From a virus, in the IMG/VR virus record IMGVR_UViG_3300045988_115355, positions 21,895-85,894 of that record: a stretch of DNA of 64,000 bases; one strand, 5' to 3'. Shown here piece by piece: positions 32,390-50,201 of this stretch (position 1 is its first letter; every line of letters starts with the position of its first letter). The notes under the pieces were generated by a model. The model was not told the DNA's origin and searched no databases. It worked only from the letters and a program-made list of their open reading frames with translations. The translations under genes were made by a program, and so were the position numbers.

Positions 32390-32408
32390 TACAGTAATAT
32401 TAATAAAT

Positions 32409-32451: not shown

Positions 32452-32470
32452 ATGATAGATTTAATAGAAC

Positions 32471-32794
32471 TTATGTATGAAGATAACTCCTAAACTCTCT
32501 TTTATTCTCTCCTACAGGATATACATTATACTTATAAGTATAGGAAGGATTATGCTTTACAGGGTTATTTAACATACAATCCTGTGAAGTCATACAAGCA
32601 AATACTCTTCTAAAGGTACTTTCCTCTTCAGGAGAGAGAAAAGCCTCATAATCTTCATAAAACCTATAGGTAAGCAAAAGTCTAAGTAGGTTAATATAGC
32701 CTACTCTTCTCTTATATCCATAATACTTCAAGGTCTGGTAATAAGAAGACAGACCTTGTGTAATTAATAATTTAATATTATCCATGACAACCAC
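32471..32794 (-). CDS. Small structural-module protein, 107 aa
   Basis: ORF overlapping upstream gene by 17 nt. Confidence 0.45.
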   Translation of the reverse strand: MVVMDNIKLLITQGLSSYYQTLKYYGYKRRVGYINLLRLLLTYRFYEDYEAFLSPEEESTFRRVFACMTSQDCMLNNPVKHNPSYTYKYNVYPVGENKREFRSYLHT

Positions 32795-33341
32795 ATCCTT
32801 TAATCTTACTACTTTCAGGGGCTATACCTTTGAGTTTTTTCCATAGCTCTATAGCCAGCATATAGTTCCCTGTATCTAAAGCTAACTTAAAAGCATTATA
32901 TAGTAATAACCAATTCTCATAACCCATAGGTACTTCACAATCTAAAGATAAATCTTTGATATAACCCATACCTAACTTAAAAGGTATCTCTTCATCATAG
33001 AGTACACATAAGGCTGTCATCACATCTTCCCCACAAGGAGTATTAGGAGAAGGGGTTCCTTTGAGAGTTACCCATACAAAGAGTAAATCATCTTTATGTA
33101 ATTTTTCTTTATAGTCTTTCAGGCTAAAAGAGACACTTGCTACCTTTAAAGTAAAAGCATCAAAGTCTGCTACCTTGACAGCAGTAGACGATGGTCCAGC
33201 CTCTATAAAGGTATCTTGATTATCTATCTTAAAATCTTTAATAGTGATGTTTGAGAGGTAAGGCTTATTTTTGACTTTCACATCAATAATAGCTTTCTCA
33301 CCTCCCCAAGTCATCCTACATTCAAGGAAATCTACCATCAT
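32778..33341 (-). CDS. Structural-module protein, 187 aa
   Basis: ORF with ATG start immediately downstream of terminator hairpin. Confidence 0.5.
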   Translation of the reverse strand: MMVDFLECRMTWGGEKAIIDVKVKNKPYLSNITIKDFKIDNQDTFIEAGPSSTAVKVADFDAFTLKVASVSFSLKDYKEKLHKDDLLFVWVTLKGTPSPNTPCGEDVMTALCVLYDEEIPFKLGMGYIKDLSLDCEVPMGYENWLLLYNAFKLALDTGNYMLAIELWKKLKGIAPESSKIKGCGCHG

Positions 33342-33369
33342 AATAATAACAATTTAATGTTTAAACAAT

Positions 33370-33395: not shown

Positions 33396-33429
33396 TATGA
33401 AACTAAAACACAATACTTTTATACTAACA

Positions 33430-34329
33430 TTAATCCAAATGAGCAGGACTACCAGCAGCAGCACCTGTCATAGCATTAATACTCGCAATAAATGCAGTAG
33501 TCTTAGCAGTAGGAACAGCTATCTGAATATCCTTTTCAGACTTACCTGAATCCATGCACTCACCCTCATCAAAATAGTGAATGGTAACTACATCATAGGT
33601 AGCATTGAGGTCTGTCAAGTATTGAGTGTCAAAGTTATTAGGATAACCCATATCTCTATACTCATCACCTCTTGTACCCATGCAGAAATATTCAAGGTCT
33701 GCAATCTTCTTGGCAGCATCATTGGCAGCAGTTGAAGCCCCCTTAGTGATAGTTGCCCATGCGGTGGTCTCTACACCATTTGAAAGGATAGGTGCTACAC
33801 TAACCATAACAGGCATAACAGCTACAGGGAATTTACCTCTTTGCCAAGGTTGCTCAACCTCTGCAATATTAATAGTATCTGTAGTAACAGTTACCTTGAT
33901 AATGTTCTCTCTCTTGGTGTTAAGCTCTAAAGACTTACCTAACTTATCTGCAATGATAGCAGCAGTATCACCTGTAACAGCAGTATAAGCTCCTAATCTT
34001 ACAGCGGTATCACCTGCACCACCTCCAATATAGTTTTGAAGATGTACCTTGATAATATAAGTCTGACCAACAGCTACTGTGACAATCTTAGCATTAACAG
34101 AATTCAGTTTAGTATTAAGATTAGCAGCTACAGTCTTCTTAGCATAGAGGATATTAGCAGGATTAATCTTATCACTTGCTACTACACCACCATGCCCTTT
34201 CTGCTTAAAGTAGAGGGACTTGCCAGCAACACCACATACTGTAAGCTCTCCTAAAGTTGCAGGAGCGGCATTATCTGCACCCACAGCATTAGCTACATAA
34301 AAGTTTCTAACTTGATGAATTGAAAACAT
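33430..34329 (-). CDS. Ala/Gly/Thr-rich beta-type structural protein (299 aa), probably abundant virion component
   Basis: Composition typical of Ig-like/decoration or tube proteins; followed by a strong terminator hairpin. Confidence 0.5.
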   Translation of the reverse strand: MFSIHQVRNFYVANAVGADNAAPATLGELTVCGVAGKSLYFKQKGHGGVVASDKINPANILYAKKTVAANLNTKLNSVNAKIVTVAVGQTYIIKVHLQNYIGGGAGDTAVRLGAYTAVTGDTAAIIADKLGKSLELNTKRENIIKVTVTTDTINIAEVEQPWQRGKFPVAVMPVMVSVAPILSNGVETTAWATITKGASTAANDAAKKIADLEYFCMGTRGDEYRDMGYPNNFDTQYLTDLNATYDVVTIHYFDEGECMDSGKSEKDIQIAVPTAKTTAFIASINAMTGAAAGSPAHLD

Positions 34330-34354
34330 ACTTGTATAATTTATAAATTAAACA

Positions 34355-35065: not shown

Positions 35066-35904
35066 TATTCACTCCTTTCTCCTAACTGTGTTATAATCTG
35101 TGTATTATCAGCAGGGTAAGAACCCTTTGCTATTTCCACAGCTCTTTGTACTATCTCTCTATGTATTTCTTCATTTAACTCACAAGGAGAAGTACCATTG
35201 TAAATAGGCTCATTGCCTACCTTACCATCAATAGTCAAACCTTGATATTCTCCTACTAAAGGCTCTACAATAATAGGTCTCGGTTTTCTGATATATTTTA
35301 ACTTGTAAGTGTAAACAGGTCCTGTTAAATAGGAGATGTTAGATTTAAGAACCACCCCATAAGTAGTGTTGAAAGAAGCATCTTTCAACCTGTAAAAGAT
35401 ATTGGGAATAACATAAGCAGCATTTCTTTGGTTATTCTGTAACAGTCTCCACGCCTGCTTTCTTAAGGGCTCTCCAAAAGGTTTAGACATCAATCTGTTA
35501 TAGTCACTATTGGTAATAGGTAAAATAACAGCTTCTTTTGTGAGTGTCTTATTGGTATTACCTTCCTTATAGGTATATACTATCTTTAACTTCTCATTAA
35601 TAATGAAAAGTAAGTCTTGTGGTAATACAAAAGCAATAGCTCTACTGTCTATAGTTTGAGGAAAAGCTGATGCAGGTGCTTCTATATAGGAAGTAAGATT
35701 AACAAAATCTATCTGTCTCTTAGCACTGTCATCATAACCTTGTTTATACTTATTCCCAAGAGGATTGAAGTACTCCTTAACTAATTGCTCTTGGCCTTTA
35801 GTAAGGAATACTGATATTTCATAAGAAGACAGCCCTGTAACAACATTACTATTGATGTTGTTATATAGAACATTAAACTCCTGATAAAATTCCTCTTTGG
35901 TCAT
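35065..35904 (-). CDS. Structural-module protein, 279 aa
   Basis: ORF, ATG start, tight spacing. Confidence 0.5.
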   Translation of the reverse strand: MTKEEFYQEFNVLYNNINSNVVTGLSSYEISVFLTKGQEQLVKEYFNPLGNKYKQGYDDSAKRQIDFVNLTSYIEAPASAFPQTIDSRAIAFVLPQDLLFIINEKLKIVYTYKEGNTNKTLTKEAVILPITNSDYNRLMSKPFGEPLRKQAWRLLQNNQRNAAYVIPNIFYRLKDASFNTTYGVVLKSNISYLTGPVYTYKLKYIRKPRPIIVEPLVGEYQGLTIDGKVGNEPIYNGTSPCELNEEIHREIVQRAVEIAKGSYPADNTQIITQLGERSE

Positions 35905-35913
35905 AATATATTA

Positions 35914-36864
35914 TTATTTATCAAACTCATTAATCTTAGCCTCAATAAACATCTTCAATGTTTGATTGACAGGCTTATTGATATAAGCAGCAGCTACTGA
36001 GAGAATAGCATCACCCTTATCACATAAAGGTTTACCATCAACAGTAAAGAAAAAACCATTTCTTACAATGATAGCTCCTACTTCTGCGCCTCTCTTAATA
36101 AGCAGTTTAGAGTAGAACATGGGGTCTTCTACAATCCTTAAGAAGAGCTTAGCATCTGCCTTGATAAGTTTATCAATCTTATCAGATAAGACGTCTGAAG
36201 AGGTATTTACAGCATAGGGTTTTCCTTCTGCCATTTCTAAGATAAATCTCATCTTATGTTTATCATCTTCAATCTTACCAAACTCCTTATAAGCAGCAAC
36301 AGTGGCATTCACTCTCTTCTTATTGGCTTTTGCTTCTTCTGTCTCATGTAAGATAACAAACTCATAAGTAGCTTTAGGTCTATTCTGAAGCATATCTAAA
36401 GAAGGAGCAATAAAGTCCTTGTTAGCCAACAGTACCTTATATTTGATATAATCTTCAGGAACACTTAAATCTAAGTAGTTATCCTGCTTCTGTAGTCTTA
36501 CAAAGAAATTCTTCCAAAAGTTATCCTTCTTTCTATATACAGAGAGAGCGTTATCTTCAAGCCCCATAGCCTTCTCTAAGAATGATTTTTCAGTCTTAGT
36601 AAGCACATCTACTAATTGCCCTGACCTAAGCATAGGAACAGTAAACCATCGTGAAGCCTCTTCAGACATACCACCATAGTTAATATGCTTGGGGTTATGA
36701 ATTAAGGCAGATTCTTTAGGAACGTGCTTTACAATAACTCTTTCATTTCTCAAAGGGTTTTCCTTTACTTCCTCTTGCTCTGTATATACTTCTGCCATAT
36801 CTTCTTGTACTACAGTTTCTTCAATTTCTTTAGGCTTTTTGCCTTTCTTCTTAGTCTCTTCCAT
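35914..36864 (-). CDS. Structural-module protein, 316 aa with Lys/Glu-rich N-terminus
   Basis: ORF with ATG start downstream of the MCP terminator. Confidence 0.5.
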   Translation of the reverse strand: MEETKKKGKKPKEIEETVVQEDMAEVYTEQEEVKENPLRNERVIVKHVPKESALIHNPKHINYGGMSEEASRWFTVPMLRSGQLVDVLTKTEKSFLEKAMGLEDNALSVYRKKDNFWKNFFVRLQKQDNYLDLSVPEDYIKYKVLLANKDFIAPSLDMLQNRPKATYEFVILHETEEAKANKKRVNATVAAYKEFGKIEDDKHKMRFILEMAEGKPYAVNTSSDVLSDKIDKLIKADAKLFLRIVEDPMFYSKLLIKRGAEVGAIIVRNGFFFTVDGKPLCDKGDAILSVAAAYINKPVNQTLKMFIEAKINEFDK

Positions 36865-36950: not shown

Positions 36951-38486
36951 TTAAGAAGCTAAAATACTAGGTATAATAGCCATGGTCTTCGTGGGGTCAT
37001 AAACAATAGTACCGAAAGTAGCCATCTTATGAACAGTTGCAGAATCTTCTGAATAGCTCATGTTGTTGATGTTTCTTTCACCTGTGAAAGGATTTCTAAA
37101 TCCTGATTCATAACCTCTTACCTCATAGTCACCCTTAATAGCTGTCTTTTGGATATTAGGAGTTTCCTCGTCTGCACCAATATACCAAATATCAAATCTA
37201 TAACTAAAGGCAACACCACCTTCAGGATGTAAGATTTTATTTCTTACCTTATCATCATAGAAGGGGTCTACATTAAGTTTTACATAAACACCATTAGGAG
37301 CCTGCCATTCAGTAACCTGATAGTCAGTAATTCTAACAGCATTCGTAGGAGCAAACTTTGAAGCTACCTTAGAAACAGCAGCAGGATTACCATCACTATG
37401 AGTGAAGATAGGCATCCATCCTGAAGTCTCCTTCTTAGCCTCTCTATTAAAGATAAGAGCACCTCTCTCACCTGTATTAATGACAAACTTTCTATTAGCA
37501 AAGTTTAGCTTACCTTCAGAGAGTTCTGACAAAGCATTGATAATCAACTTCATAACAGTAGTAGTGTCATTGTAATACATAGCATTAGCTACCTCTGATT
37601 GCTCAAAGATACCAGCACCCATTCTAATCACATTACCTGACTTACCAAAGTTAAGATACTCACCATTGGCATTTCTGTTACATCTACCAAAGGCCATAGC
37701 AGTGTTCTTTTGGTCTTGGAACTCTGTTTCAAACTGCCAATCCACATAGTGCATCCACATGTTTGAATTATCCTTAACCTGATTACCACTTGCATCCTGC
37801 TTAACCATAGGAATACCAAAGGCAAGTTTTCTATTCATCTTATTACCTGCTACCTTATGAGAAAGTCTGATAGTCGTCCAACCATTTCTCATAGCTACAG
37901 GAGTAGTAAAATGAATATCACCAACCTTTCTTGAAAGCTCTGCCTCTACAGGAGTATATTCAATAGAGAATCTCTCACCAGCAAGCAGTCTTTCAGCAGG
38001 AATACCTTCTGTAATACCACCCATCAACTCACAGCAATAGACAGCATTAGTACCTTCAAATCTTGCACTACCCTTCACTCTAATAGGATAAGCCTCATTA
38101 AGATTACCACCAATCACTGTACCATCAGGGAACCAATCTTCAGGAAATACCAAGTAGAAGTCAGAACCACCAACACCTACATTGTTACCACCTGCTACTA
38201 CAACAGTAGTACCATCCTGCTCTCTTGCTTCAATCAGAGGTACATTCTTCTTAGAAGAGCCTAAGACATTCCAAAAATACTCTGTATCATCATCAAACTC
38301 CTTAGTAGGGAATTGATTCAGGAAAGTCTCCAAGGTGTTACCTCTATTTGCTGCAAGCAATCTAATCATAATGTCAGAAGCTCTTTGAGGTTGTTTTTGG
38401 AACATAGCTCCTAAGTGATTATCAGAGGTTAAACCTGTCCAACCTGTAAATCCGAGTGTCTGAAATTTACCTAATTTACCAGCCAT
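36951..38486 (-). CDS. Putative major capsid protein (511 aa)
   Basis: Size and position (after acidic scaffold-like gene, followed by terminator, own upstream promoter) fit an HK97-fold MCP; no direct motif evidence. Confidence 0.45.
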   Translation of the reverse strand: MAGKLGKFQTLGFTGWTGLTSDNHLGAMFQKQPQRASDIMIRLLAANRGNTLETFLNQFPTKEFDDDTEYFWNVLGSSKKNVPLIEAREQDGTTVVVAGGNNVGVGGSDFYLVFPEDWFPDGTVIGGNLNEAYPIRVKGSARFEGTNAVYCCELMGGITEGIPAERLLAGERFSIEYTPVEAELSRKVGDIHFTTPVAMRNGWTTIRLSHKVAGNKMNRKLAFGIPMVKQDASGNQVKDNSNMWMHYVDWQFETEFQDQKNTAMAFGRCNRNANGEYLNFGKSGNVIRMGAGIFEQSEVANAMYYNDTTTVMKLIINALSELSEGKLNFANRKFVINTGERGALIFNREAKKETSGWMPIFTHSDGNPAAVSKVASKFAPTNAVRITDYQVTEWQAPNGVYVKLNVDPFYDDKVRNKILHPEGGVAFSYRFDIWYIGADEETPNIQKTAIKGDYEVRGYESGFRNPFTGERNINNMSYSEDSATVHKMATFGTIVYDPTKTMAIIPSILAS

Positions 38487-38505: not shown

Positions 38506-39684
38506 TTAATACTTACTATTATCAAGTAACCATCCATCGTTTTTCATCACATCATTAAGGCCATTACCTCTATCACCTTCAGCATAAGCCAAACTACCAC
38601 CCATGGGCGATGTACTTAACTTTGTTTCAAAATCACTAAGACGAGATTTCACTTGCTTTTTAACTTGTTTGTTTATAATTCCATCTAAGCTCTCAAAGCC
38701 ATTGGTTAAAGTAAAGAGAACACCTAAAGCTTTTCTAAACTCTACAGGGTGTTCATCAGCATATTGCTGTACCTTAGTAACAGGGTTTCCTTCAGTATCT
38801 TTCCCTACAATCTTAGTCATCACTTCATAGGCTTTCTGCCTTGTAGGAGCATCTAACTGAATACCATTAAATACTTCTTTACTTTCTAAAAGAGATTTCT
38901 TAAACTCTTCAGCCTCTTTCTTTACTTTTGCTTGAGCTTCTTTCTCTTTTTCCTTAGCTTCATTAACAGTACTATCATACTTATTCTGATAGAACTGTTT
39001 AACACTTTCAAGAGCATCCTTAGCATCCTCTTTGTCAGTACCTGCATCAATACTTCTTTTAGTTAAAGTCTTTGCTTTTTCTTCAGAAATACCTTTGTTA
39101 ATAAAGTCCTGATAGATGAGGTTAGCTCTAATATTCTGCCCTTCATCTGTTTCAGCATTTATTCTATCTTCATCAATACTATTTAAGTTATTAATGATGT
39201 TAGTATAATTCTGAATAGATTCCTGTGGAATACCATAATCAAGAGCTTCTTTGATTCTCTTCTGCTCTTCAGTAAGTCTTGCAGTTACTTCTTTCTCAAT
39301 AGCTTCTGCCATACTTTGAGCATCTTTGATACCATTTAAAGTCTCTTCATCTAAGTTTTGAAGATAGCCGTCTTCCCTCATAGCCTTGGCAAAGGAAGAG
39401 ACAAAATTGTTATTGGGAGAAACATCCTCTTTTTGAGAAGACGGCTCTTCAATATCTTTTTTATTCTCTTCACCACCTACGCTCTTTGGTTTACTATCCT
39501 CGCCAAACAAATTTTCAGCAGTCTCTATAACCTCGGTAGTGTTTTTTACTTCATCATTAGACTTCTCTTCCTCCACTTGCTTACCACTGTTATCAGTAGT
39601 ATCATCAACTTTCTCTTCCGTATTATTGCCAAATAATACAGAAGCATCTGTAAAAGCTGAATCATTTAAAACAAATTCTCCCAT
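38506..39684 (-). CDS. Acidic Lys/Glu-rich coiled-coil protein (392 aa), putative scaffolding or head-fibre protein
   Basis: High E/K content and predicted coiled coils (EKEKEAQAKVKKEAEEFKK), located immediately upstream of the putative MCP. Confidence 0.4.
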   Translation of the reverse strand: MGEFVLNDSAFTDASVLFGNNTEEKVDDTTDNSGKQVEEEKSNDEVKNTTEVIETAENLFGEDSKPKSVGGEENKKDIEEPSSQKEDVSPNNNFVSSFAKAMREDGYLQNLDEETLNGIKDAQSMAEAIEKEVTARLTEEQKRIKEALDYGIPQESIQNYTNIINNLNSIDEDRINAETDEGQNIRANLIYQDFINKGISEEKAKTLTKRSIDAGTDKEDAKDALESVKQFYQNKYDSTVNEAKEKEKEAQAKVKKEAEEFKKSLLESKEVFNGIQLDAPTRQKAYEVMTKIVGKDTEGNPVTKVQQYADEHPVEFRKALGVLFTLTNGFESLDGIINKQVKKQVKSRLSDFETKLSTSPMGGSLAYAEGDRGNGLNDVMKNDGWLLDNSKY

Positions 39685-39772: not shown

Positions 39773-40195
39773 CTAATAGCTTACAGTCAGATATACCTTA
39801 TCAGCACTTTTGATTCTCTCTAAAAGCCTATTATAAGTATCTTTACTATTAAGTACTTTTCCTTTAGCTTTATTCTCTCCTACTAAGATACAACCATCTG
39901 TATCTTCTGAAGTATTACCTGCATGGATTCTAATCCCTGCAAAGCCTTTCACATTCATCACTAAAGGCATGATTCTTTTAAACCTATTACTGTAATTTAA
40001 AATAACAGTATAAGTCCCTGTAGGAATAGCAGTGATATGAGGCTTCTTTAAGAACATTATCTTCTCTATAGGCATGTTCTCTTCAAGACCCCTATCCTTA
40101 TCTTCTAAAGTATCACAGAAATAAGCACCGTCAATATAAAGTTTACCTATTGTATAGGTATCCTTTAAAGCAATTCTTTTTACTTCAATATTCAT
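39773..40195 (-). CDS. L,D-transpeptidase (YkuD)-fold-like protein, 140 aa; candidate cell-wall peptidase/endolysin
   Basis: Motif IRIHAGNTSEDTDGCILVG resembles the catalytic H...(S/T)xGC(I/V) region of YkuD-type L,D-transpeptidases. Confidence 0.4.
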   Translation of the reverse strand: MNIEVKRIALKDTYTIGKLYIDGAYFCDTLEDKDRGLEENMPIEKIMFLKKPHITAIPTGTYTVILNYSNRFKRIMPLVMNVKGFAGIRIHAGNTSEDTDGCILVGENKAKGKVLNSKDTYNRLLERIKSADKVYLTVSY

Positions 40196-40995
40196 TATTT
40201 ATAAATTTTATTGTATGCGTAAATATATAAGTAGGGCTTAGCTTCAACAGCCCACTCTTTTAATATTTTGTAAATAGTAATACTGTCAGGTCTGTACTTT
40301 AAATTATTCTCTTTCCAAGCTACAGAGATAATAGATAAAGGAAGGTTATCTTCATGTACAAAATACATAGCTTTATATCCTACTTCTGCCTCCCTCATCC
40401 TTAAAGAATAGTCTTCATCTATCTTGTATAAATCTTTAGCACTACCTGCCCAAAAATTATCTTTGTTTTCTCTTAGGTATCTATAAATACCTAAATCTCT
40501 TGTAGGAATATCTACATATCTCTTTGAAGGGTCTCTGTAATATCCTGTAATCTTACTGATATTTCTTTTCTTTGATACCTTCTCATAGCCTTCATCCATA
40601 TACTTAAAGTCTATATTTCCTGAAGTATATTTACCATTGTGAAATAAAGAGATAAGGCATCTGTCAGCATCTAAAGCCTTTAGGATATTGTAAGATATAT
40701 CATTTAGATTATCCTCAATCTCATCACTTAAGATGGCTTCTTTCATCTTATTCCTTACTCTTACAGAATCTACATCTTCAGCAGCATCTACTACTGCTTC
40801 CTTAGTAATATTCTTAATCACAGGGGTATAGTTCTTTAAGCTAATATCTCTATTAAAGATTGAGAATAAAGTATAAATTCCTAAGATAATTACAATGTAC
40901 AAAACTACCTTAAAGAAATTCTTAAGAGAAATACCTACAAGGAATTTATAGACTTTTCTTGCACTATTTATGATTACTTCTATTGTCTTATCCAT
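40195..40995 (-). CDS. Membrane-anchored protein (266 aa, one N-terminal TM helix)
   Basis: Hydrophobic segment VVLYIVIILGIYTLFSIF near N-terminus; start overlaps the downstream peptidase gene. Confidence 0.45.
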   Translation of the reverse strand: MDKTIEVIINSARKVYKFLVGISLKNFFKVVLYIVIILGIYTLFSIFNRDISLKNYTPVIKNITKEAVVDAAEDVDSVRVRNKMKEAILSDEIEDNLNDISYNILKALDADRCLISLFHNGKYTSGNIDFKYMDEGYEKVSKKRNISKITGYYRDPSKRYVDIPTRDLGIYRYLRENKDNFWAGSAKDLYKIDEDYSLRMREAEVGYKAMYFVHEDNLPLSIISVAWKENNLKYRPDSITIYKILKEWAVEAKPYLYIYAYNKIYK

Positions 40996-40996
40996 A

Positions 40997-41647
40997 TTAC
41001 TTCACTATAGTTACAAATCTATTACTATCTGATTTAATGTAAGGATTTCTTTCCTTCACCTCCACATTAATCACAGTATGTTTCTTTTGAAACCACCTTA
41101 ATAAGAAAAACTTCTTAGGAGGCTCAATAGTCTCTTTCCTTGCAAAAGTAATAATATATTTCTCACTCTTAAAGTAAGGACTTACTACTAAAGCATTTGG
41201 ATAATGTAAACTAAGTTTAAGTCTATACCATTCATTATTTAATGTAGTGTCTATCTTTGTATTATTCTTAAAGATAGTATCTCTTAAATGTAGTGTGTCT
41301 ACTTTAGTGATAGTTGTCTTTAAATAACTATAGCTGACTAAAGATTTAGGTTTAACCTTTAGTTGCTTCATAGTGCTTAACAATTCCTTTGATATATAAT
41401 CATTGGCATTCTTAAGCTCTCTTACTTTTAACTCATACATCTTAGCTTTATCAGGCAGAGAATCTTGCTCTGCCTGCATAGCTTTAATAGTGATAACAGC
41501 TCTTTTGTATTCACTCTTATAATAGTGATATTCCTTATAACCTGCTATACATACTATCATAGTTACTATAAAGAAAGTAACATATAATGTTTTTAAATTT
41601 AAGTACCTCATGTTATTCAGCATTTTTATAAGTAAAAGCAGACCCAT
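40997..41647 (-). CDS. N-terminal-TM plus coiled-coil protein (216 aa), spanin-like
   Basis: TM helix LYVTFFIVTMIVCIAG followed by coiled-coil (AMQAEQDSLPDKAKMYELKVRELKNAN). Confidence 0.4.
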   Translation of the reverse strand: MGLLLLIKMLNNMRYLNLKTLYVTFFIVTMIVCIAGYKEYHYYKSEYKRAVITIKAMQAEQDSLPDKAKMYELKVRELKNANDYISKELLSTMKQLKVKPKSLVSYSYLKTTITKVDTLHLRDTIFKNNTKIDTTLNNEWYRLKLSLHYPNALVVSPYFKSEKYIITFARKETIEPPKKFFLLRWFQKKHTVINVEVKERNPYIKSDSNRFVTIVK

Positions 41648-43616
41648 CTAAATCACCTGCAATTCTTTCACCTCTTATAATAGTATCATCCATTAAGAAT
41701 TGCATGTTAAAAGCAAGACCTATAGAATCAGGTAAAAAGCCTCCTATAAAGAAGTTAACTATTTTATCCGTAAAGGTTGAGAAGTCATCCATCTTTACTA
41801 CACAGATAGCTTCATTCTTAGTGCAAGGAGCATCAAAGTCTATAAATAGGAACTTTAATTTATTACCTAAATTATAAACCTTAAATTTGTTATAATAAGA
41901 AATTCCCTTCCTAACAGGTATATCAATATATAATCCATTTAATGTTCCTTTATAGTAATTTAAACCATTAGCAACAGGATGAGGATAAATTCTTAAAGTT
42001 CTCTTATCATCTTGAAGTATTACTAATTGTTTGATTTTAGTAGGTATAGCACTCCAAGGCTTACAAATTCCTCTATATAATAGATTATGGTCTACTTTCC
42101 AAGTAGTAGGATTTATTTGTTTTCTCTCTAACAGAAGACCTGTGTAAATCAAGGTATTTACTAAAGAAGTTGAGAGAGCACTATACAATATAGAATTATT
42201 AGCAATATACTCATTTTTGAAAGCATACCCTAAACCTGTTATTGTGTGCAACTTTGTAGGGTCATCAGGAAACTCATAGAGTTTTAGAGTACACCTATCA
42301 GTTAAAGGTAATAACCAAAAAAGAACAATATATTCATGTAAAGAAATAGTCCTGTTTTTATTATAAGCATACTCATAATGTAAATTAGGGTCAAGTCTTG
42401 TAATAAAACAATCTTTCTCTGAAAAATTGTTATCCGTAGGAGTTGCTTCTACTTTTCCATATATCTCACAATTCTTAGAATCGTGAGAACCTACCAAAAC
42501 TTTCTTATCTGGGTAGATTAAGTTCTTATTATATTTTTTAGAAATACTATTAAAGAATGCTCCAACATACCCCATAGGAAATAGTTGGTATTCATCACTA
42601 ATAGGATATAAAGACAGCCTTATTTCTAAAGTACCCGTATTATCTACTTTCACTTTATAATAAAAAGATTGCCATATTACACAAGTATCTCCTTCTGAAA
42701 AATTTTCATCATAAGCGCTCTCTCCCATGTAATAAGGATTACCTCTCATAGAAGCATAAGGACTACCACCTGCTATCATACAATTTCTCAAAGTATTATG
42801 CACAGGAAGAGTGTAAGACAGAGTTGAGTTACCTACTCTTTCTATCTTATCTAAAGTTTTAAATCTCACACCATAGGACAGCATATCCTCCATAGCTGTA
42901 AGATTAACAGAGCTGCCTCTCAAACTGTTGATAGCATTAGTATTATTTCTAATGTTATTTTCATTAGCAGTAACCTTTGGTGTTAAAGTATTTATACCAT
43001 TCTGAAGAGAGGTAACTTTACCCTCAACGGCAGCTACTCTTGTCTTAAGATTATTGACATCTGTCTTAAGATTTCCTATATCTGTTTTGTTAGTATTGAT
43101 TTGAGCTTTATTGGCTGTATTATCTGTTTTTAAAGAAGCTATGTCATTCTTATTGGTAGTAGCCTGATTATTAACTCCTGTTATTCTATTATTAATAGCA
43201 GGAATAGTAGTATTGTTAATAGTACCTACAGAGTTCTTTAATCCTTCTATCATAGGTTTTCTTGCATCTAAGATAGCTTTATTAGCTGCAATAGCTGTCT
43301 TATTATCATTTATCAACGGTTTAAGATTACTGTTGATATATTGTTGTACAGTATTAGTAACATCTGTTTTAATCTGTTGTAGCTGTGTAGGATTAATTGT
43401 GTTACTATGAGCCTCTAAAGTTAATAATCTATTCTTAATATCTTGTAAATCCTGTGGCGATAAGATACTTGAAAGATTAATCTCTCTCCATGCTTTTGCA
43501 GTCTCATCATAATACTTACTGATGAGTGATACACTTAACCCTGATATATTTAAAGATAGCCAAAGTACTGACTTATCTAATGGTTCTAAACTTCCAAATA
43601 CTACTTGCATAATCAA
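41613..43616 (-). CDS. Tail fibre protein (667 aa) with shared N-terminal anchor motif and Asn/Thr-rich coiled-coil repeats
   Basis: N-terminus LEPLDKSVLWL paralogous to the three upstream genes; repeats NTNKTDIGNLKTDVNNLKTRV typical of fibre shafts. Confidence 0.6.
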   Translation of the reverse strand: MIMQVVFGSLEPLDKSVLWLSLNISGLSVSLISKYYDETAKAWREINLSSILSPQDLQDIKNRLLTLEAHSNTINPTQLQQIKTDVTNTVQQYINSNLKPLINDNKTAIAANKAILDARKPMIEGLKNSVGTINNTTIPAINNRITGVNNQATTNKNDIASLKTDNTANKAQINTNKTDIGNLKTDVNNLKTRVAAVEGKVTSLQNGINTLTPKVTANENNIRNNTNAINSLRGSSVNLTAMEDMLSYGVRFKTLDKIERVGNSTLSYTLPVHNTLRNCMIAGGSPYASMRGNPYYMGESAYDENFSEGDTCVIWQSFYYKVKVDNTGTLEIRLSLYPISDEYQLFPMGYVGAFFNSISKKYNKNLIYPDKKVLVGSHDSKNCEIYGKVEATPTDNNFSEKDCFITRLDPNLHYEYAYNKNRTISLHEYIVLFWLLPLTDRCTLKLYEFPDDPTKLHTITGLGYAFKNEYIANNSILYSALSTSLVNTLIYTGLLLERKQINPTTWKVDHNLLYRGICKPWSAIPTKIKQLVILQDDKRTLRIYPHPVANGLNYYKGTLNGLYIDIPVRKGISYYNKFKVYNLGNKLKFLFIDFDAPCTKNEAICVVKMDDFSTFTDKIVNFFIGGFLPDSIGLAFNMQFLMDDTIIRGERIAGDLDGSAFTYKNAE

Positions 43617-45106
43617 TATATTAAATTAACATGATAATGATTTTCTTCTAAACACATCTTAAGATATTTAATCTCTTCTTCTACAAAGATATTATCTTTC
43701 AATGTTAACTGCAAGGAGACAGAGTGACTTACTTTAGGTAACACAGCTAATAACTCTGTTAAAGAAACATTGAAATTATCTTTATGTGGAATAGTAACGT
43801 TTAAAGATTTAACGTTACTATCCTCTATACTATACAATAAGGATAGGTTATTCTTATCTACACTGTTGGTATAATCTATGGTGAGCCTATCTATAGTAGC
43901 ATTTATAAATACTTCTGTGCCTTTAATACTACCACCATTATCTATAATAGTAACATCCTTAAAAGTACTATTCTTAAACATCCAATACAAGGAAACATCA
44001 TTACACAGCTCTAAGGTTATGTTTGTATTAGGAGCTATAATAGTATTAAAAGTACTATTGAAATCTGTAACATGTTTTCTATACCTATCCTTAAAAAGAG
44101 TTTCTATAAGGAGTACCTTCTCTTTAAATGAAACATCATCTTCTCTACTGTTTAATAGTAAAGATTGAGCTTTGAGTTCCCCTAACAGATAGCTCATACT
44201 ATACTCTTTTAAAGAGGACAGTAAGGAGACAAAGTTATCTTTATCTTCAATATCTGACAAGAGGCAGTCTAATACCTTCGATTTCTGTTGATTATCTCTA
44301 ATAACAGAAGAGTAAGGATTACCTGTACTATCACATTCTGTAATGCTGTAACCATAAAAAACTAAATCTTTTCTATTAACAGGAGGCAGAGTATTATTAA
44401 GATACCCTTCTGTAGTTATGATGGGATACTTCTCTTTTAAGATATCAACCATTTCCTGTGAAAGATTAACTATATGAGATAATTTAATATCCCATAATTC
44501 TCCATCCTCTGTTCTTATAAACTTATCATTTGTATATAATGCTTGAAGAAGGTCCATACCTTGCAGTGATTTATCATTACCAAAAATACCATCTATTAAT
44601 AAAGTATGCTTAACTTTACTTGTAACATCTAAATGATGTAAGAACAACTTACACTGTTCTTTGGTATCTATATTTCCTACTTGAATAGTAAATATCTTAG
44701 GTGTTTCATCTCCTATATACATAGGAGAAGGAACAACTAAATTGGTAGTAGCATCATTCCTGAAAATAGTAATATCAGGTAGTGCTCTGACAGTATTAAC
44801 ATCTATAGTAGTATCTATCACCACACCTTCAAAGGTTTCTACTATTGAAGGGATGCTGTTCTTATTGATATAGTTATCTCTATAGGTGACGATAGGCACC
44901 TCTACTATCTTCTCTACCTCTTCACCTGTCTCTATAACAAAAGGAGGTTTAGTGTTTAAGGTCTTGATGTAATTATCATCTATATACATCTTAGCCACAG
45001 GTCTCCACCCACTATTAGTATAGATGTAAACCAAGTTACCGCCATCCTCTTTATACCAAAGTACAGAAGTACTTGGTGGTTCTGCTATTCCTCTATATAT
45101 CTCCAT
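43613..45106 (-). CDS. Tail fibre/receptor-binding protein paralog (497 aa)
   Basis: N-terminus MEIYRGIAEPPSTSVLWYKEDGGNLVYIYTNSGW shares G.xEP...LW.K...Y.Y.N.GW motif with neighbours. Confidence 0.55.
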   Translation of the reverse strand: MEIYRGIAEPPSTSVLWYKEDGGNLVYIYTNSGWRPVAKMYIDDNYIKTLNTKPPFVIETGEEVEKIVEVPIVTYRDNYINKNSIPSIVETFEGVVIDTTIDVNTVRALPDITIFRNDATTNLVVPSPMYIGDETPKIFTIQVGNIDTKEQCKLFLHHLDVTSKVKHTLLIDGIFGNDKSLQGMDLLQALYTNDKFIRTEDGELWDIKLSHIVNLSQEMVDILKEKYPIITTEGYLNNTLPPVNRKDLVFYGYSITECDSTGNPYSSVIRDNQQKSKVLDCLLSDIEDKDNFVSLLSSLKEYSMSYLLGELKAQSLLLNSREDDVSFKEKVLLIETLFKDRYRKHVTDFNSTFNTIIAPNTNITLELCNDVSLYWMFKNSTFKDVTIIDNGGSIKGTEVFINATIDRLTIDYTNSVDKNNLSLLYSIEDSNVKSLNVTIPHKDNFNVSLTELLAVLPKVSHSVSLQLTLKDNIFVEEEIKYLKMCLEENHYHVNLIY

Positions 45107-45110
45107 TTCT

Positions 45111-46439
45111 TTAAGGTTTAAACACTAATCTGAAAGTGCCATAATAGTTACCATTGTTATTATATACTTGAATCCCAAATGGTTGTATTAATGTATTAAA
45201 TTGAGGTAATTGAATATAATGTGTAAATCCTTTAGTAAAATTAGGATTAGAAGTATTACAAAGGAATGCTAAAGCATTAACATCTATACCTGTCTTAGGT
45301 TTAGGATAATAATACTTGATATTACCTTTTGTGGTAGCAATACCACCATAATACAACTGCATTTCAAAAGGCTCATGAAGCCCCGCACAAGTTATCTTAG
45401 TATTTTCAAAAGTACCTGAGTGGGCACATATATATGAGTAAAAATTAACCAAGCCAAATAAGTTAATCCTATTTTCTTCTACAGTGAAATAAGGATGAAA
45501 GGTGGGTAGTTTAGTAGGTGTGGCAGTTACACTTGCTATATTGATAAAAGAATTATGTCTTTCTATCTCTGACTTATTTACATATTTATTATTCCTTGCA
45601 ATAATATCATAGAGTAATAACTCACCTTCCTTAGTATTTGTTCCTAAAGTAATAGTACAATTCCTACCATCTTTCCCAAAAAACTTGACAAGAGTACTTC
45701 CTATGCCTAATAAGAACAAACAGTTAAATACCCAATAGCTCATGTATTTCTCAAATGTATTTACCTTTGAAGGAATAACATTTGGATTTATATTAGACAT
45801 AGCAGTGGGAAAAGCAGCCTTTGTATATTTAGTTATATTATTGTTATTAGTGTATAATAACCTACTTATAACTATTCTATCTATAACAGCAATGGATGTA
45901 TCTAAATAAATATAGAAGACAACATGCCTGCAATCATCAGATACATGGTAATAACATTTGATAGGAGGAAGCTGAATAAAAGGATAACCCTCACTATCTT
46001 CAAATAAAGATACAGGTTTATACTCTGTATGAGGTCCTAAATAAGAAGTAGGAGTTTCATCAGGTTTTACATAAGCAAAGCTAAATACCTTATTAAACTC
46101 ATTGATATCAAAGTTACAAGACACTGAAAGTGTTTCAGTATCTATCACTTCACTTGCCCTGTTAAAGTCAAAGCTAATCTTAAAATGAGGAACATCTTTA
46201 ATCTGATTTACTTTATTTAAATGGTCTACCTCACTCTTTAAGCTCTCTATATGCTCATTAGCTGTCTGTAGAGAGTTAACCAAGTTATTCACAACACCTG
46301 CTAAGGTAGTAGGGTCTGTTGTTAAAGCCTGCCACCCTTTATTACCATAAGCCATAGCATTAAGGTTATACCCCGTATCATCAGGTTTTAACCATAATGC
46401 TTTTTTATTCTTAGGCTCTTTATATCCTTTATAAATCAT
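45111..46439 (-). CDS. Tail fibre/receptor-binding protein paralog (442 aa)
   Basis: Full-length paralog of the adjacent 447-aa gene (shared IPHFKISF...SCNFD and YFT.E..R.NLFG blocks) plus common N-terminal motif. Confidence 0.55.
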   Translation of the reverse strand: MIYKGYKEPKNKKALWLKPDDTGYNLNAMAYGNKGWQALTTDPTTLAGVVNNLVNSLQTANEHIESLKSEVDHLNKVNQIKDVPHFKISFDFNRASEVIDTETLSVSCNFDINEFNKVFSFAYVKPDETPTSYLGPHTEYKPVSLFEDSEGYPFIQLPPIKCYYHVSDDCRHVVFYIYLDTSIAVIDRIVISRLLYTNNNNITKYTKAAFPTAMSNINPNVIPSKVNTFEKYMSYWVFNCLFLLGIGSTLVKFFGKDGRNCTITLGTNTKEGELLLYDIIARNNKYVNKSEIERHNSFINIASVTATPTKLPTFHPYFTVEENRINLFGLVNFYSYICAHSGTFENTKITCAGLHEPFEMQLYYGGIATTKGNIKYYYPKPKTGIDVNALAFLCNTSNPNFTKGFTHYIQLPQFNTLIQPFGIQVYNNNGNYYGTFRLVFKP

Positions 46440-46443
46440 ATTC

Positions 46444-47787
46444 TTAATTTAATCTTACTCTTACATAAGCCTTATCTGTAGGCTTCAAACATCTTACAGG
46501 AACATAAGGAAATATATGTCCTGAAGCGCTGAAAGCATGTACTGCAAAATCCTTTGTAGTACTCCAATCCATAGGTTCAGCTACCATAAACTCATACCAT
46601 GATTTAGTCTTTTTATACTTCTCATTCTCTGTCCAGCATCTATGGTAACCGTTAAAGAATTGTTGCTCCATTCCATTAATGGGATCTATCTCTCTTCTAT
46701 ACATTTGAATAGTCCCTAATGTATCAGCAAAAGATAATACATCATTTTCAAATGTACCTCCTACAATGATATTTTGATTGGTATTATCTGTACTTATCCA
46801 ATCCCTCATACCAAATAGGTTTACTCTTCCACCTTCTAAAGTAAAGTAGGGTTTAAACTGTGGGAATGTAAAGTTAGGGTCTGGTGATAAAACTGGGTTG
46901 AAGTTTAAAGTCCCTAAATGTAATGAATCTTGCATTACCTTATATAAAGAATAACCTTTATGACCCACAGCTCCATCCTGTGTACATGCAAAACAGTTTG
47001 TATTATGGGTGTGCATGAGTGTCATTGCTATACCTAATAAGGTAAGATTATTATAAGTTCTGAAGTTCATAATACGTCTTTCCTTATACTTTTCAGGTAT
47101 AGTAGTAACAATGCCTTCTGCTTCTGCTTTAGTTACAGGTGTAGGAGGTTCCTTAATCTGAGCTTCTGTAGTTGGCAGACCACCTACAAAATGCTCATTA
47201 TGTAAGTACCTGTTAAACAGAATCCAATAATCTTTATTGGTTATACAATAAAGATAGATAGATAACGTGTAGCTGCTCTTGTCAAAAACTTTGAAAGCTC
47301 TTAGGTTAGGTACTCCTACACAAGAGTAGTTAATACTATCAGTAGTATCTGCATCTACATAATCACCCTCAAAGTGGTCACCATTCCTATAAGCTAACTT
47401 AAATGGGAAGAAATTTAAGAATTTATCCCTATCAAAGTTACAAGATACCTGTAATGTACAATCACCATATAGTGTCATAGGATAAGGATTGGTGAAAGTA
47501 ATCTTCACATGTGGTATACTGTTAATATACTTCAAGGTAGATACATCAGTCAAATCACTATTAGCAGCCTTCAGTGTTTCTACTTCTGAATTTAAGGAAG
47601 CTATTTGGTCTAATATAGGTTGTAGATTAACAGGGGGAGTGGGTGTAGGAGAGCCTGCACCACCAGCACTTGTAGCTTTTACCCATCCTTTATTGGAATA
47701 GGTATATAATACATTCTCACCATTTTCAGGTTTTACCCAAAGTTTAGTCTTATCTTTAGGTTCATCAATACCAACATGTATAGCCAT
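46444..47787 (-). CDS. Tail fibre/receptor-binding protein paralog (447 aa)
   Basis: N-terminus MAIHVGIDEPKDKTKLWVKPENGENVLYTYSNKGW; paralogous to 442-aa gene. Confidence 0.55.
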   Translation of the reverse strand: MAIHVGIDEPKDKTKLWVKPENGENVLYTYSNKGWVKATSAGGAGSPTPTPPVNLQPILDQIASLNSEVETLKAANSDLTDVSTLKYINSIPHVKITFTNPYPMTLYGDCTLQVSCNFDRDKFLNFFPFKLAYRNGDHFEGDYVDADTTDSINYSCVGVPNLRAFKVFDKSSYTLSIYLYCITNKDYWILFNRYLHNEHFVGGLPTTEAQIKEPPTPVTKAEAEGIVTTIPEKYKERRIMNFRTYNNLTLLGIAMTLMHTHNTNCFACTQDGAVGHKGYSLYKVMQDSLHLGTLNFNPVLSPDPNFTFPQFKPYFTLEGGRVNLFGMRDWISTDNTNQNIIVGGTFENDVLSFADTLGTIQMYRREIDPINGMEQQFFNGYHRCWTENEKYKKTKSWYEFMVAEPMDWSTTKDFAVHAFSASGHIFPYVPVRCLKPTDKAYVRVRLN

Positions 47788-47789: not shown

Positions 47790-50201
47790 TTATTTCTTTT
47801 TATCTTTATTGTTAATACTTTCTTTCTGTATATCTAACTTCTTATGATCAAGCTCCAACTTCTTATTAAACTCTCTAATCTGTTCTTTGAGTTTCAATCT
47901 CTCATGTTCTGTTTGTGGAGCTACAATACCATCATCTGTATTCTTAATAGTAGCAGCATTTACATCAGCTTCTGCCTGTATCTGTGCTACTTTAATCTTT
48001 GTCTCACTGTCTAAGTCAGCCATATATTTCTTCAACTCTAAAGCTGCTTGTTCCTGTGCTAACCTATCTTCATTCATCTGCTGTTGAGCTTTCAGATTTT
48101 CCTGCTGTGTTTGTTGTGCTTGTTGAATCTTTCTCTGCTCACTTCTCTCAATAATTCTTGTCTTCTGTGCAATACTTGAAGAAGACCATATCTTCATCAA
48201 AGCACTCATATCTACAGTACTATTCTGCATGGCAGCCTGTGCTATCATATCTAACTTCTGTAGTAACTCCATAGAATTACTATCACTGTCAACAGCCAAA
48301 CCATAGTCATTAAGAGCAAACTCATCCCCATCAATCTCCATCACTCTTTGTGATATATCTGATGTGATATATTGAAATTTAAAAGTCTTTCCTCTCATAG
48401 CTATCTTAGCTGCTTCAAGGAATGCTTCCAATACTCTTTTCTTAGTATCATCATGGATATTAAACAAAGCCTCTGTAATATAAGAAGATTGAAGAGTAGC
48501 CCTTTCAACACCTCCTACAGTTTCTCTATTACTTACTTGCCCTTCTCTTTGTCTTGATATTCCTGCTACTTCTCCCATTTCACTCTTAATCCATTCAAGC
48601 AGATTCATCATCTGTTGAATGTAATTACCTGTGTTTGAGGAAATCATACCTCTTGAAGCGTTGTTAAGATTACCTGCAAGTTTACCTTGTGCTACACCTG
48701 CATTACCTTCCTTAAAGGAATCAACTACTCCTATATGATTAATCTTGGCAAAGTATAACCATTTCTGTACATCCCACTCATCAGGAATTTTAGCCAAATC
48801 CACTTCAAGAATATCCCCCCAATTAGCTGCAATAGCATCGTTTAATCTATAATGAAGGATATCATAGAGATAGTTATAATGTTTCATCATATCTACCAAG
48901 GAGAATGGTTTATCATCATTGAGATTGTAGATAGTCCCTATAATACCAAAATGACACTTTGAAGGATTAGACATCCTTGTAAACTGTACAGGTCTTGGTC
49001 TCATGTTAACAAAGATACCACTATTAGTATTAAAAGTATCTGTAGGATTAATACTCTTATTCCCTCCTATCAGAGTTCCTTCCCATGCCTCATTAATCCA
49101 TAGTGTAGTAGCTTCTTCTCCTAAGTCTTTCCTTACTACATAGTTCTCTGCATAATAAGAAAAAACTTCCTCCCCTGTTTCTTGATTATATCTCTTTACT
49201 TTAAGTATCTTTCTCTTTGATTTCCAATATACTCTAAGTACTCTGATGTTTCCTAAGACATCATAAGGCATGAGAGATTGCAAATTCCTACCAAAGAAAG
49301 CACTTGCAGGGGTTTCAAAATTATATCCTGACAGGAAGGTATTGACAAATCCTAACCTCTCATCCCTATTACCCATACTATCTACAGGTTGGCTATTATA
49401 GGTATTTATACCTTCTATAAAGTCAATATCTTTAGGAGTAAGCTCTTCATAAAAGGTATCTATAATCTTTCCTGCTGACCAATAATCTTCAATGATTACC
49501 ACATCAGCATCTTCTATTCTATTGGAATAACCTGATTTAAAGACATGCACCTTCAAAGGGTTTAACCTTTCAAGGGTAGGCTCACCACCTACTATATCTA
49601 CTTGATAAATCTCTTCCCCTACAGTTAAAGCATCTACAAAACCATGATTGAAGATAACAGGCATATTGAGTTCTTTCTTATAATGGTTAAGTAGCTCATT
49701 AGCCCTTAACTCCATAATATCCTGCCATTCATAATTAGCATAATCATCTAACTTCTCTATCTGCTTGTTATACTCATCTTCTGATAAATGCTCATCTTCA
49801 ATGAGTTGTTTCAAAGAAGTAAAGAGCATATTCTTTTTATTCTCTTCAACCTCACTGATAGCATCAGGATTGGTGACAACTACTCTATAATCAAAAGGTC
49901 TTTTTATCTCTTCACCCCTAAGCACGTTAATCTTAGAGTTCATGATAGGATAATGCTGTATAGTATTAGGGATAAAGTTAGCCTGTATGTTATCAGGATT
50001 TAGGATAAGCTGCACATCTTGCATGTGTATCTTACCTTCTAATAAATCATAGTTAATCTTCTTATGAATTACAGATTTCCTTACCAAAGAGTAATTAAAG
50101 AAGGTTTTATTGTCAGCCCATAAAATACATTGTTTTCTCCATTCAGTAGTCTTCTTACTGAAGGATAACATCTGTCTTGGGAAAGTACGTACATCATTCA
50201 T
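47790..50201 (-). CDS. Putative portal protein (803 aa)
   Basis: Large gene immediately downstream of terminase large subunit; acidic/coiled C-terminus; size matches crAss-like portals. Confidence 0.5.
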   Translation of the reverse strand: MNDVRTFPRQMLSFSKKTTEWRKQCILWADNKTFFNYSLVRKSVIHKKINYDLLEGKIHMQDVQLILNPDNIQANFIPNTIQHYPIMNSKINVLRGEEIKRPFDYRVVVTNPDAISEVEENKKNMLFTSLKQLIEDEHLSEDEYNKQIEKLDDYANYEWQDIMELRANELLNHYKKELNMPVIFNHGFVDALTVGEEIYQVDIVGGEPTLERLNPLKVHVFKSGYSNRIEDADVVIIEDYWSAGKIIDTFYEELTPKDIDFIEGINTYNSQPVDSMGNRDERLGFVNTFLSGYNFETPASAFFGRNLQSLMPYDVLGNIRVLRVYWKSKRKILKVKRYNQETGEEVFSYYAENYVVRKDLGEEATTLWINEAWEGTLIGGNKSINPTDTFNTNSGIFVNMRPRPVQFTRMSNPSKCHFGIIGTIYNLNDDKPFSLVDMMKHYNYLYDILHYRLNDAIAANWGDILEVDLAKIPDEWDVQKWLYFAKINHIGVVDSFKEGNAGVAQGKLAGNLNNASRGMISSNTGNYIQQMMNLLEWIKSEMGEVAGISRQREGQVSNRETVGGVERATLQSSYITEALFNIHDDTKKRVLEAFLEAAKIAMRGKTFKFQYITSDISQRVMEIDGDEFALNDYGLAVDSDSNSMELLQKLDMIAQAAMQNSTVDMSALMKIWSSSSIAQKTRIIERSEQRKIQQAQQTQQENLKAQQQMNEDRLAQEQAALELKKYMADLDSETKIKVAQIQAEADVNAATIKNTDDGIVAPQTEHERLKLKEQIREFNKKLELDHKKLDIQKESINNKDKKK

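Follow-up and report, generated by a model that had tools for sequence, protein, structure and literature searches.

Four consecutive fibre genes of a gut crAss-like phage begin with an N-terminal module predicted to be related to the capsid plug of the head fibre gp21

Introduction

What does a phage build when every gene in its tail-fibre slot begins with the same short module, and to which part of the virion does that module attach? This question is raised by four consecutive genes, here named p447, p442, p497 and p667 after the lengths of their products, in a 64,000-nucleotide (nt) stretch of the IMG/VR virus record IMGVR_UViG_3300045988_115355 (positions 21,895 to 85,894 of the record; referred to as the window, and numbered from its first letter), which comes from a gut crAss-like, Steigviridae-like crassvirus. 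An earlier note on this DNA, made from the sequence alone, had described the four products as tail-fibre or receptor-binding paralogs sharing an N-terminal anchor.

Crassviruses are the most abundant human gut phages and their host recognition is largely unknown; to our knowledge, only one crassvirus virion structure exists. Combining a conserved anchor with a swappable head is a classical principle of phage fibres. Examples are the modular receptor-binding-protein cassettes of SP6/K1-5-like and Klebsiella podoviruses, in which the N-terminal anchor is conserved and the C-termini can be swapped, the docking partner of the anchor being either the tail or an adaptor fibre. Fibres can also be attached to the head, as in Bacillus phage phi29, where gp8.5 (PF11133) is a capsid-attached trimeric head fibre that is thought to aid adsorption. 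The gp21 family of crassviruses and its capsid socket are likewise already known. In PhiCrAss001, gp21 is a trimeric head fibre (HFT; PDB 7QOF, 7QOH, 7QOI and 8CKB; Bayfield et al. 2023, PMC10172136). Cryo-electron microscopy placed its residues 1–38, in trimeric form, within the pocket at the centre of planar capsid hexons, a pocket formed by the major and auxiliary capsid proteins, and residues 1–26 of the tail fibre gp22 in a hub of two copies of tail hub protein A (THA) and one of tail hub protein B (THB) (PMC10172136).

A common N-terminal module heads four consecutive genes

The four genes lie on the minus strand, 2–4 nt apart, in the order p447 (447 amino acids (aa); 46444..47787), p442 (442 aa; 45111..46439), p497 (497 aa; 43613..45106) and p667 (41613..43610). 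As p447 begins 2 nt past the stop codon of the portal gene and is the first gene after it, p447 is the positional equivalent of gp21, and p442, p497 and p667 are second to fourth. The 667-aa open reading frame (ORF) of p667 opens at a TTG (43616) that overlaps the stop codon of p497, while an ATG two codons further in, at 43610, gives 665 aa. We regard the ATG as the more likely start, because it aligns better with the other three starts and is the one chosen by gene callers in relatives. At its other end, p667 is overlapped by 35 nt (41611–41647 region) by a 216-aa gp27-like ORF, which in relatives is called at 204 aa from an internal Met.

Whole-protein BLASTP aligned the N-termini of p447 and p497 with an E value of 7e-7 (49% identity over 35 aa) and those of p442 and p497 with an E value of 3e-5, and hhalign comparisons among the N-termini of p447, p442 and p497 gave P values from 7e-11 to 2e-6 (6e-9 for p442 against p447). 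The N-terminal similarity is thus statistically backed for these three proteins, which have a clear module of ~40 aa in common, and which we refer to as the plug: aa 1–40 of p447 (47668..47787), aa 1–41 of p442 (46317..46439) and aa 1–38 of p497 (44993..45106), all on the minus strand. p667 shares only the first ~20 residues of the module (MQVVFGSLEPLDKSVLWL). The first half of the motif, MxxxxGxxEPxxxxxLW, is present in all four proteins and the second half, YxYxNxGW, in three. When a hidden Markov model (HMM) of the three complete plugs was searched against 676 six-frame segments of the window, p667 ranked top, yet with an E value of 0.069 and over model positions 1–18, and no further copy of the module was found; hhalign of p667 against the other three N-termini gave P = 5e-4 over 19 columns. 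The earlier note had claimed a conserved N-terminal module in all four genes. That claim stands for the first half of the motif, and by alignment for p447, p442 and p497, but not for the second half, which is missing from p667, whose similarity is marginal.

At the DNA level, the 5' ends of the four genes are only about 50–60% alike, and conservation of the module would therefore be selected at the protein level. Recent gene conversion was considered as a source of the shared N-termini and was dropped on account of the same low DNA similarity. AlphaFold2 modelled residues 1–40 of p447 as four short strands forming a beta meander (predicted local distance difference test (pLDDT) score 72–78), followed by a linker and a helix at residues 56–90; this meander is unlike the N-terminus of gp22.

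Past residue 50, p447 and p442 are the sole similar pair among the four proteins. They align by BLASTP at 26% identity across 383 aa (86 bits, E = 1e-22) and share the blocks (I/V)PH(V/F)KI(T/S)F, VSCNFD and YFT(L/V)E..R(V/I)NLFG, in agreement with their earlier description as full-length paralogs with shared internal blocks. In p447 the plug is followed by a Gly/Ser/Pro linker (residues 41–54), a coiled coil (about residues 56–90) and an orphan distal domain, and p442 has the same architecture. The most canonical HFT-type plug is that of p497, a protein that shows no obvious coiled coil and whose body is an orphan. In p667 the plug is half conserved and leads into a coiled coil of ~190 aa, after which comes an orphan C-terminal domain of ~430 aa.

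The plug is a divergent relative of the gp21 N-terminus

We compared the plug with 79 related loci, gathered through their portal genes (58–62% identity), and with one same-species contig. The gene directly after the portal in the related loci starts nearly always with a gp21-type N-terminus. An iterated HMM recovered 74 proteins with such an N-terminus (HFT-type), which always occupied residues 1 to about 42 and always belonged to the first or second gene after the portal, in proteins of 95–1407 aa. When the window N-termini were aligned with this gp21 family by hhalign, the match ran end to end (probability 89–91.5%, P = 1–2e-6, score 28–30), and the best score among 200 column-shuffled controls was 15.2. 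Taken alone, the p497 plug matched the core type (probability 93%, P = 2.9e-7, columns 1–38 to 1–38) and the p447 plug matched a "bridge" HFT subtype (93%, P = 3.4e-7); the p442 plug matched the HFT family more weakly (70%, P = 4e-5), and the N-terminus of p667 did not do so convincingly (P = 0.003 over 17 columns). The bridge subtype, which has the form "...EPTDTNVGWLKPLPDGNFKLFFFNNGGW", carries the same insertion as the window plugs, and was matched by these with P = 1.2e-6 and by the core type with P = 3e-9. In the reverse search, in which an HMM of the four window N-termini was run against 1514 ORFs of the relatives, the best 13 matches were all HFT-type (best E = 6.5e-4).

The N-terminus types that head other fibres of related phages were aligned with the window plug in the same way. 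For the gp22, gp23, gp24, MGKIKK and MALNI types, hhalign gave P values above 0.2 with the pooled profile and of at least 0.08 with single-protein profiles. Against the window N-termini, the gp22-type N-termini (n = 26) gave P values of 0.11–0.8 and the gp24/MGKIKK type ("MKDIQQLIKKN...IFPKTF" or "MGKIKKILENELVGGTQ") of 0.17–0.72. Six-frame scans of the window found no match to the latter type and no gp22-type N-terminus in any frame (best E = 3.1). We also considered gp22-type N-termini as distant relatives of the HFT plug, and dropped this idea at P = 0.17. The relationship between plug and gp21 appears to be remote but specific, and on these profile comparisons the plug would be related to the capsid-binding N-terminus of gp21 and not to the tail-fibre N-terminus types of related phages. 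We regard the four proteins as very probably modular virion fibres with an HFT-type plug.

Several points weigh against a kinship with gp21 and what it would say about location. A plain gp21-family HMM scored the window N-termini at E values of only 0.0015–0.02, a PDB-wide profile search was not significant and did not reach gp21, the homology probability is about 90% and not 99%, and any location on the virion rests on this remote homology. In addition, phmmer against PDB sequences returned nothing significant, and no curated family covering the plug was found. The shared N-terminus might then be a trimerisation, folding or assembly signal and no virion anchor at all, with a convergent or coincidental likeness to gp21, as would suit a module so short and a homology that falls short of near-certainty. 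We consider this very improbable, since the gp21 relation is specific, reciprocal and end to end and includes the indel pattern of the bridge subtype, the module sits in the same position, at the extreme N-terminus of genes directly after the portal, and it is nearly invariant in the lineage while the rest of the proteins varies.

What the window proteins have in common with gp21, then, is a ~40-aa module at the extreme N-terminus (profile–profile P about 1e-6 to 3e-7) with a fibre and head region behind it, as well as, for p447, the position directly after the portal. They differ in several respects. gp21 is 97 aa long and ends in a phi29 gp8.5-like tip (PF11133), whereas the window proteins have 442–667 aa and unrelated orphan heads; there are four copies in the window and one or two in relatives; and the window plug is a divergent subtype with a 4–6 residue insertion, of which p667 retains half. 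No match to PF11133 or to a head-fibre PHROG was found in the four proteins, whereas gp21 and a 358-aa HFT-type protein of one relative (L015) do match. Many proteins with an HFT-type N-terminus in the relatives likewise lack PF11133, which would therefore define gp21 orthologs and not the plug family. phi29 gp8.5 offers a conceptual model for head-fibre function, but in sequence it is unlike the window proteins, and the resemblance to phi29 is confined to the C-terminal tip of gp21. The longer HFT-type Steigviridae proteins in IMG/VR (706 aa in L018, 1407 aa in L021, 575 aa in L020 and 358 aa in L015) resemble the window proteins in joining an HFT-type plug to very different distal parts. In those proteins, however, the distal parts are recognisable (gp22/gp23-like tailspike, phrog_5302 or phi29-like tip), and in the window they are orphans. 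The gp21 plug thus appears to define a large modular family, of 95–1407 aa in the relatives, and to head all four fibre genes of this lineage (p667 in part), in a window without a canonical tail fibre; both points are new.

The stalks vary in length and the distal domains are orphans

The coiled-coil stalk has ~35 aa in p447 and p442 and ~190 aa in p667, and none is evident in p497. In p667 it spans about residues 50–240 (42897..43469, minus strand), which contain 18% Asn and 13% Thr with a hydrophobic period of 3.5 residues, as in heptads, and a 21-nt repeat occurs in the shaft at 43041–43085. The Asn/Thr-rich coiled-coil shaft repeats attributed earlier to this protein are thus real. Residues 228–285 of p667 are similar to the first part of the phrog_5302-like domain in the 575-aa HFT-type protein of L020 (E = 1e-6).

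In Pfam and PHROG scans, run with the four proteins as well as with their distal parts, coiled-coil noise in p667 was all that came up, and the distal parts matched no known receptor-binding or depolymerase domain. The beta-helix family PF13229, which gp22 and gp23 do match, had no match in the four proteins even at E ≤ 1. With this result, and with the module related to the N-terminus of gp21, the "tail fibre/receptor-binding" label of the earlier note found no support. In an annotated phage collection the region had no match at the DNA level and p447 none at the protein level, and the matches to the N-terminus of p447 were at chance level only (E = 6–9). A search of 5.8 billion proteins found only close relatives, at identities of at least 83% for p447 and at least 85% for p667. 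For p667 this first search was swamped by coiled-coil candidates, and a repeat with its C-terminal domain alone against the same set added nothing. An exhaustive HMMER search with a profile of p447 and p442 against 1.84 billion representatives recovered only their own two clusters (P0019 being that of p442), and scans of IMG/VR with p442, p497, p667 and the N-terminal profile recovered only the same-species contig. The AlphaFold2 models were poor, with a mean pLDDT of 37 for p447 (11-sequence alignment) and 43 for p497 (single sequence), and Foldseek matches of these models to the PDB are therefore meaningless. As far as these searches reach, the distal domains appear to be orphans, with no detectable relatives outside this system.

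A stalk and head were exchanged with a myovirus-like phage

The relatives of p447 fall into two architectures. Eight are crassvirus proteins of 444–449 aa; the others form four clusters of 515–527 aa, in which the equivalent of p447 residues 53–447, at 86–94% identity, stands behind a different N-terminus of ~130 aa. One of these clusters (P0009) was traced to a myovirus-like contig, L003 (Logan SRR24136772_749). Its p447 homolog lies between the capsid gene, which is accompanied by a gene for a PKD-domain protein, and a Neck1 gene, upstream of the sheath, tube and tape-measure genes, and thus in the head/neck module and not in the baseplate. The segment of p447 from about codon 61 to the stop, comprising the coiled coil and the distal domain (46444..47606, minus strand), is 91.9% identical in nt to positions 10422–11584 of L003 over 1164 nt, and 94% identical in aa over 395 aa. 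As the match runs from the first heptads of the coiled coil to the stop codon, the breakpoint falls exactly at the start of the stalk. Whether the N-terminus of the myovirus protein might be the same module as the plug was also considered, and this was dropped (hhalign P = 0.02–0.19). These alignments indicate that a complete stalk and head were recently exchanged between a crassvirus and an unrelated myovirus, that is, between two virion architectures. Such an exchange implies a shared ecological niche and probably a shared host. That the heads are orphans, and that one of them moved recently between a crassvirus and a myovirus, is new.

Across 9 strains the plug is nearly invariant, and the variation falls in the linker and in patches of the distal domain. 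Between strains, the four fibre genes are the fastest-evolving structural genes, with 92–95% aa identity compared with 98.6–99.6% for the portal, terminase and capsid proteins. The picture drawn in the earlier note, in which a conserved attachment module is joined to distal domains that diverge and can be exchanged, is upheld by the invariant plug, the variable distal parts and the swap at the stalk boundary. Cassette swapping within the lineage, by comparison, was not seen: three relatives carry the same four-gene array, with products of 446–449, 442–443, 497 and 665 aa in L005 and L169, the contig of L004 ending within the fourth gene. The locus resembles the cassettes of SP6/K1-5-like and Klebsiella podoviruses in its conserved anchor, divergent heads and recombination at a domain boundary, here the 92% nt exchange with a myovirus, and differs from them in that its anchor is related to a capsid-docking module and has no known relationship to theirs in sequence. 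A recombination junction defined in this way would be useful for host prediction and for engineering fibres of swapped specificity.

The plug points to the capsid, and the slot to the tail

We propose that the four genes encode virion-surface fibres built on one plan, in which a short flexible linker joins a beta-rich plug of ~40 residues to a trimeric coiled-coil stalk and a distal domain. The plug would insert as a trimer into the hexon pocket, a binding mode taken from the PhiCrAss001 literature, and would fix the protein to the particle, while the distal parts would be interchangeable heads that recombine at the plug/stalk boundary. With their complete plugs, p447, p442 and p497 would be head fibres, using the hexon pockets jointly or dividing them among themselves and giving the capsid several different adhesive heads; no gp29 homolog was found in the window that would take up the 60 winged hexons. 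p667 would be the best candidate for a fibre docked on the conserved THA/THB tail hubs, because the late block encodes no gp22- or gp24-type tail fibre. The function of the fibres may be reversible adhesion to host-surface or mucus glycans.

Capsid binding is the sole experimentally defined function of the module, and both pocket-forming proteins have conserved counterparts in the window: the major capsid protein (36951..38486, minus strand; PF23898, 615 bits) and the auxiliary capsid protein (33430..34329, minus strand; PF25650, 221 bits) would each provide half of the candidate docking site. The myovirus copy of the p447 head also lies in a head/neck module. We therefore think it probable, with moderate confidence, that at least p447 is capsid-bound. 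By homology, at least three of the four proteins may be on the capsid and not on the tail, and at least one of the four may be on the tail. Our division of the set, which assigns the first three proteins to the head and p667 to the tail, is tentative.

The genomic slot itself speaks for the tail. In PhiCrAss001 the slot from the portal gene to gp27 contains gp21, the head fibre, and gp22–26, the tail fibres. In the window the slot between the portal gene (803 aa; 47790..50201, minus strand; gp20 homolog; phrog_6547, E = 3e-139) and the lysis genes, beginning with the gp27-like gene (DUF6549; 40997..41647, minus strand; E = 4.5e-42 to gp27), is filled exactly by the four fibre genes, none of which had a phmmer match to PhiCrAss001 gp21–26, gp28 or gp29. 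The window genes resemble gp22–gp26 in occupying this slot as several consecutive fibre genes of a phage that encodes both THA and THB. They differ from them in lacking sequence similarity in N-termini and bodies and any beta-helix or depolymerase domain, and in sharing a common N-terminal module, which gp22–26 do not have among themselves. Position in the crassvirus "tail-fibre slot" alone is, in any case, no ground for a tail-fibre label.

How relatives fill the slot was surveyed in 42 of them with a complete slot. The usual content is a short HFT (95–358 aa), then a gp22-type, then a MALNI- or gp23-type and then a gp24-type fibre. In the L064–L077 clade, short HFT-type proteins stand alongside a separate gp24-type tail fibre only, and in one locus, L065, a gp24-type tail fibre is alone in the slot, so that the HFT would be dispensable for the tail fibre in that clade. 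A few relatives carry two HFT-type genes in tandem. A slot made solely of HFT-type genes was found in none of the 42, and the window is unique in this respect.

Several of these comparisons count against the placement that we prefer. Every relative with a complete slot keeps at least one non-HFT fibre, as do the long-HFT Steigviridae, in contrast to the all-HFT array of the window. The late block, which is complete in the window, has a conserved THA and a divergent THB and no other fibre candidate. p667 is a candidate for the tail only by its divergent plug, its long shaft and elimination. Moreover, HFT-type plugs are fused in L018 (706 aa; 9381–11501), L021 (1407 aa; 12860–17083) and L023 (12768–15539) to bodies homologous to gp22 (E = 1e-19 to 1e-28), gp23 and gp24, in the 575-aa protein of L020 to a phrog_5302 "tail protein" domain (E = 8e-84), and in L051 to a PHROG "tail protein/tail fibre" domain; the plug by itself is therefore no proof of a capsid location. 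A gp22-type N-terminus is missing from every frame of L018 and L023, as it is from the window. Short proteins of 188 and 127 aa, little more than a gp22-type N-terminus, also occur in L021 and L051, respectively.

All four proteins might accordingly be tail fibres, their HFT-type plug re-purposed to dock on THA/THB hubs or on one another, so that the array replaces gp22–26 functionally. The slot, the role that every relative fills with a non-HFT fibre and that the window phage would also need to fill, and the plugs borne by gp22/gp23-like tailspike bodies all suit this reading. So do the tail hub genes. THA (32778..33341, minus strand; E = 7e-28 to gp38; PF25724, 125 bits) is well conserved and is the candidate alternative docking site, and the adjoining THB candidate (32471..32794, minus strand; E = 5e-5 to gp39; PF25711, 19.1 bits, E = 0.0013, under the 27-bit cutoff) is divergent, which might reflect a changed fibre-docking partner. 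We nevertheless find an array of tail fibres alone doubtful. Hexon-pocket binding is the only function of the module backed by a structure, the module is unlike both the hub-docking N-terminus of gp22 and the gp24-type N-termini, and, with only 12 hubs available, four fibres that bear one plug would be in competition; the head/neck position of the myovirus homolog and the dispensability of HFT-type genes for the tail fibre in the L065 clade also argue against it.

The opposite assignment would make all four proteins head fibres and leave the phage with no hub-docked fibre, receptor recognition falling to an enlarged muzzle or to the capsid fibres themselves. Beyond the plug homology to gp21, this would agree with the absence of the dimeric head fibre (HFD) gp29 (PF25641): an HMM of 16 gp29 homologs matched neither the window proteins nor the six-frame translation (E > 0.09), which would leave 60 winged hexons free for extra paralogs, and gp29 is also absent from each of the four relatives that carry two HFT-type genes. 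This last trend is not significant (gp29 is absent in 4/4 loci with two HFT-type genes and in 18/28 loci with one), and a correlation between gp29 absence and extra HFT copies was dropped for that reason. The muzzle protein (25390–30414, minus strand) has 1674 aa compared with 1371 aa in PhiCrAss001, and its Pfam crAss_MUZ match starts only at residue 521; the ~300 extra residues could influence surface properties or receptor contact. Against a wholly capsid-bound set stand the retained tail hub proteins, the half-conserved plug of p667 and the slot survey, as no relative has an HFT-only slot and the hubs would therefore be left empty. We know of no podovirus without tail-attached receptor-binding proteins, and consider this assignment quite unlikely.

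In a further reading, the head-fibre plug would be a universal socket adaptor and one family of HFT-plug fibres would fill both the hexon pockets and the 12 tail hubs. We judge this reading unlikely. If it were true, the whole of host recognition at head and tail would derive from one anchor, with heads traded at ~92% nt identity even with a myovirus, and the significance of the locus would rise sharply if the same plug did serve both capsid and tail sockets. Either capsid fibres matter far more for adsorption than has been assumed, or one plug can serve head and tail sockets.

The late block and its surroundings

The major capsid protein shares 63–68% identity with its counterparts in the Steigviridae phages Kolpuevirus, DAC15 and PhiCrAss001. 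By phmmer and Pfam, the window encodes homologs of PhiCrAss001 gp19 (terminase), gp20 (portal), gp27, gp30, gp31, gp32 (capsid) and gp33, of the ring proteins, of gp36 (auxiliary capsid protein), gp38 (THA), gp40, gp42 and gp43, and of gp44 (muzzle), gp45–47, gp49 and gp50, and the virion-protein homologs follow the same order as in PhiCrAss001. The late block is a single continuous minus-strand run from 56159 to 673, entirely within the window. Plus-strand genes for helicases, a Sak4-like protein and a thymidylate-synthase-like protein lie at both window ends, and the ~24 kb outside the window would therefore be the replication block. Related genomes have about 85–88 kb, and PhiCrAss001 has 102.7 kb.

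Next to the gp27-like gene, a 266-aa protein (40195–40995, minus strand) has an N-terminal transmembrane segment and no family match; its position corresponds to that of gp28 (holin-like) and gp29 in PhiCrAss001. The homing endonuclease genes gp37 and gp41, which interrupt the structural module of PhiCrAss001, are absent from 30411–36864 of the window, as judged by comparison with L085. At the upstream end of the late block there is a single tRNA-Arg (anticodon TCT; 55547–55621, minus strand), and at about 56200–57800 a strand switch and a change in the sign of the GC skew separate the minus-strand late block from the plus-strand replication genes (helicases, Sak4-like), as in a divergent promoter or origin-like region. 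Two antisense ORFs, of 96 aa inside p497 (43878–44168, plus strand) and of 92 aa inside the gp31-like gene (39358–39636, plus strand), are low-complexity and rich in Leu, Ile and Phe, and are most likely spurious. Among the relatives, L073 carries an extra 698-aa fibre-like gene after its gp30-like gene (19274–21370). The N-terminal motif of its product, "LP..G.PNRIYFIP...NEYLWV...HWELVG..DLTDY", resembles that of the myovirus homolog P0009, and another part of the protein, a "YGVEWD...RIGN..LHK.LPIQS" domain, recurs in L020 and L066 behind two other types of anchor.

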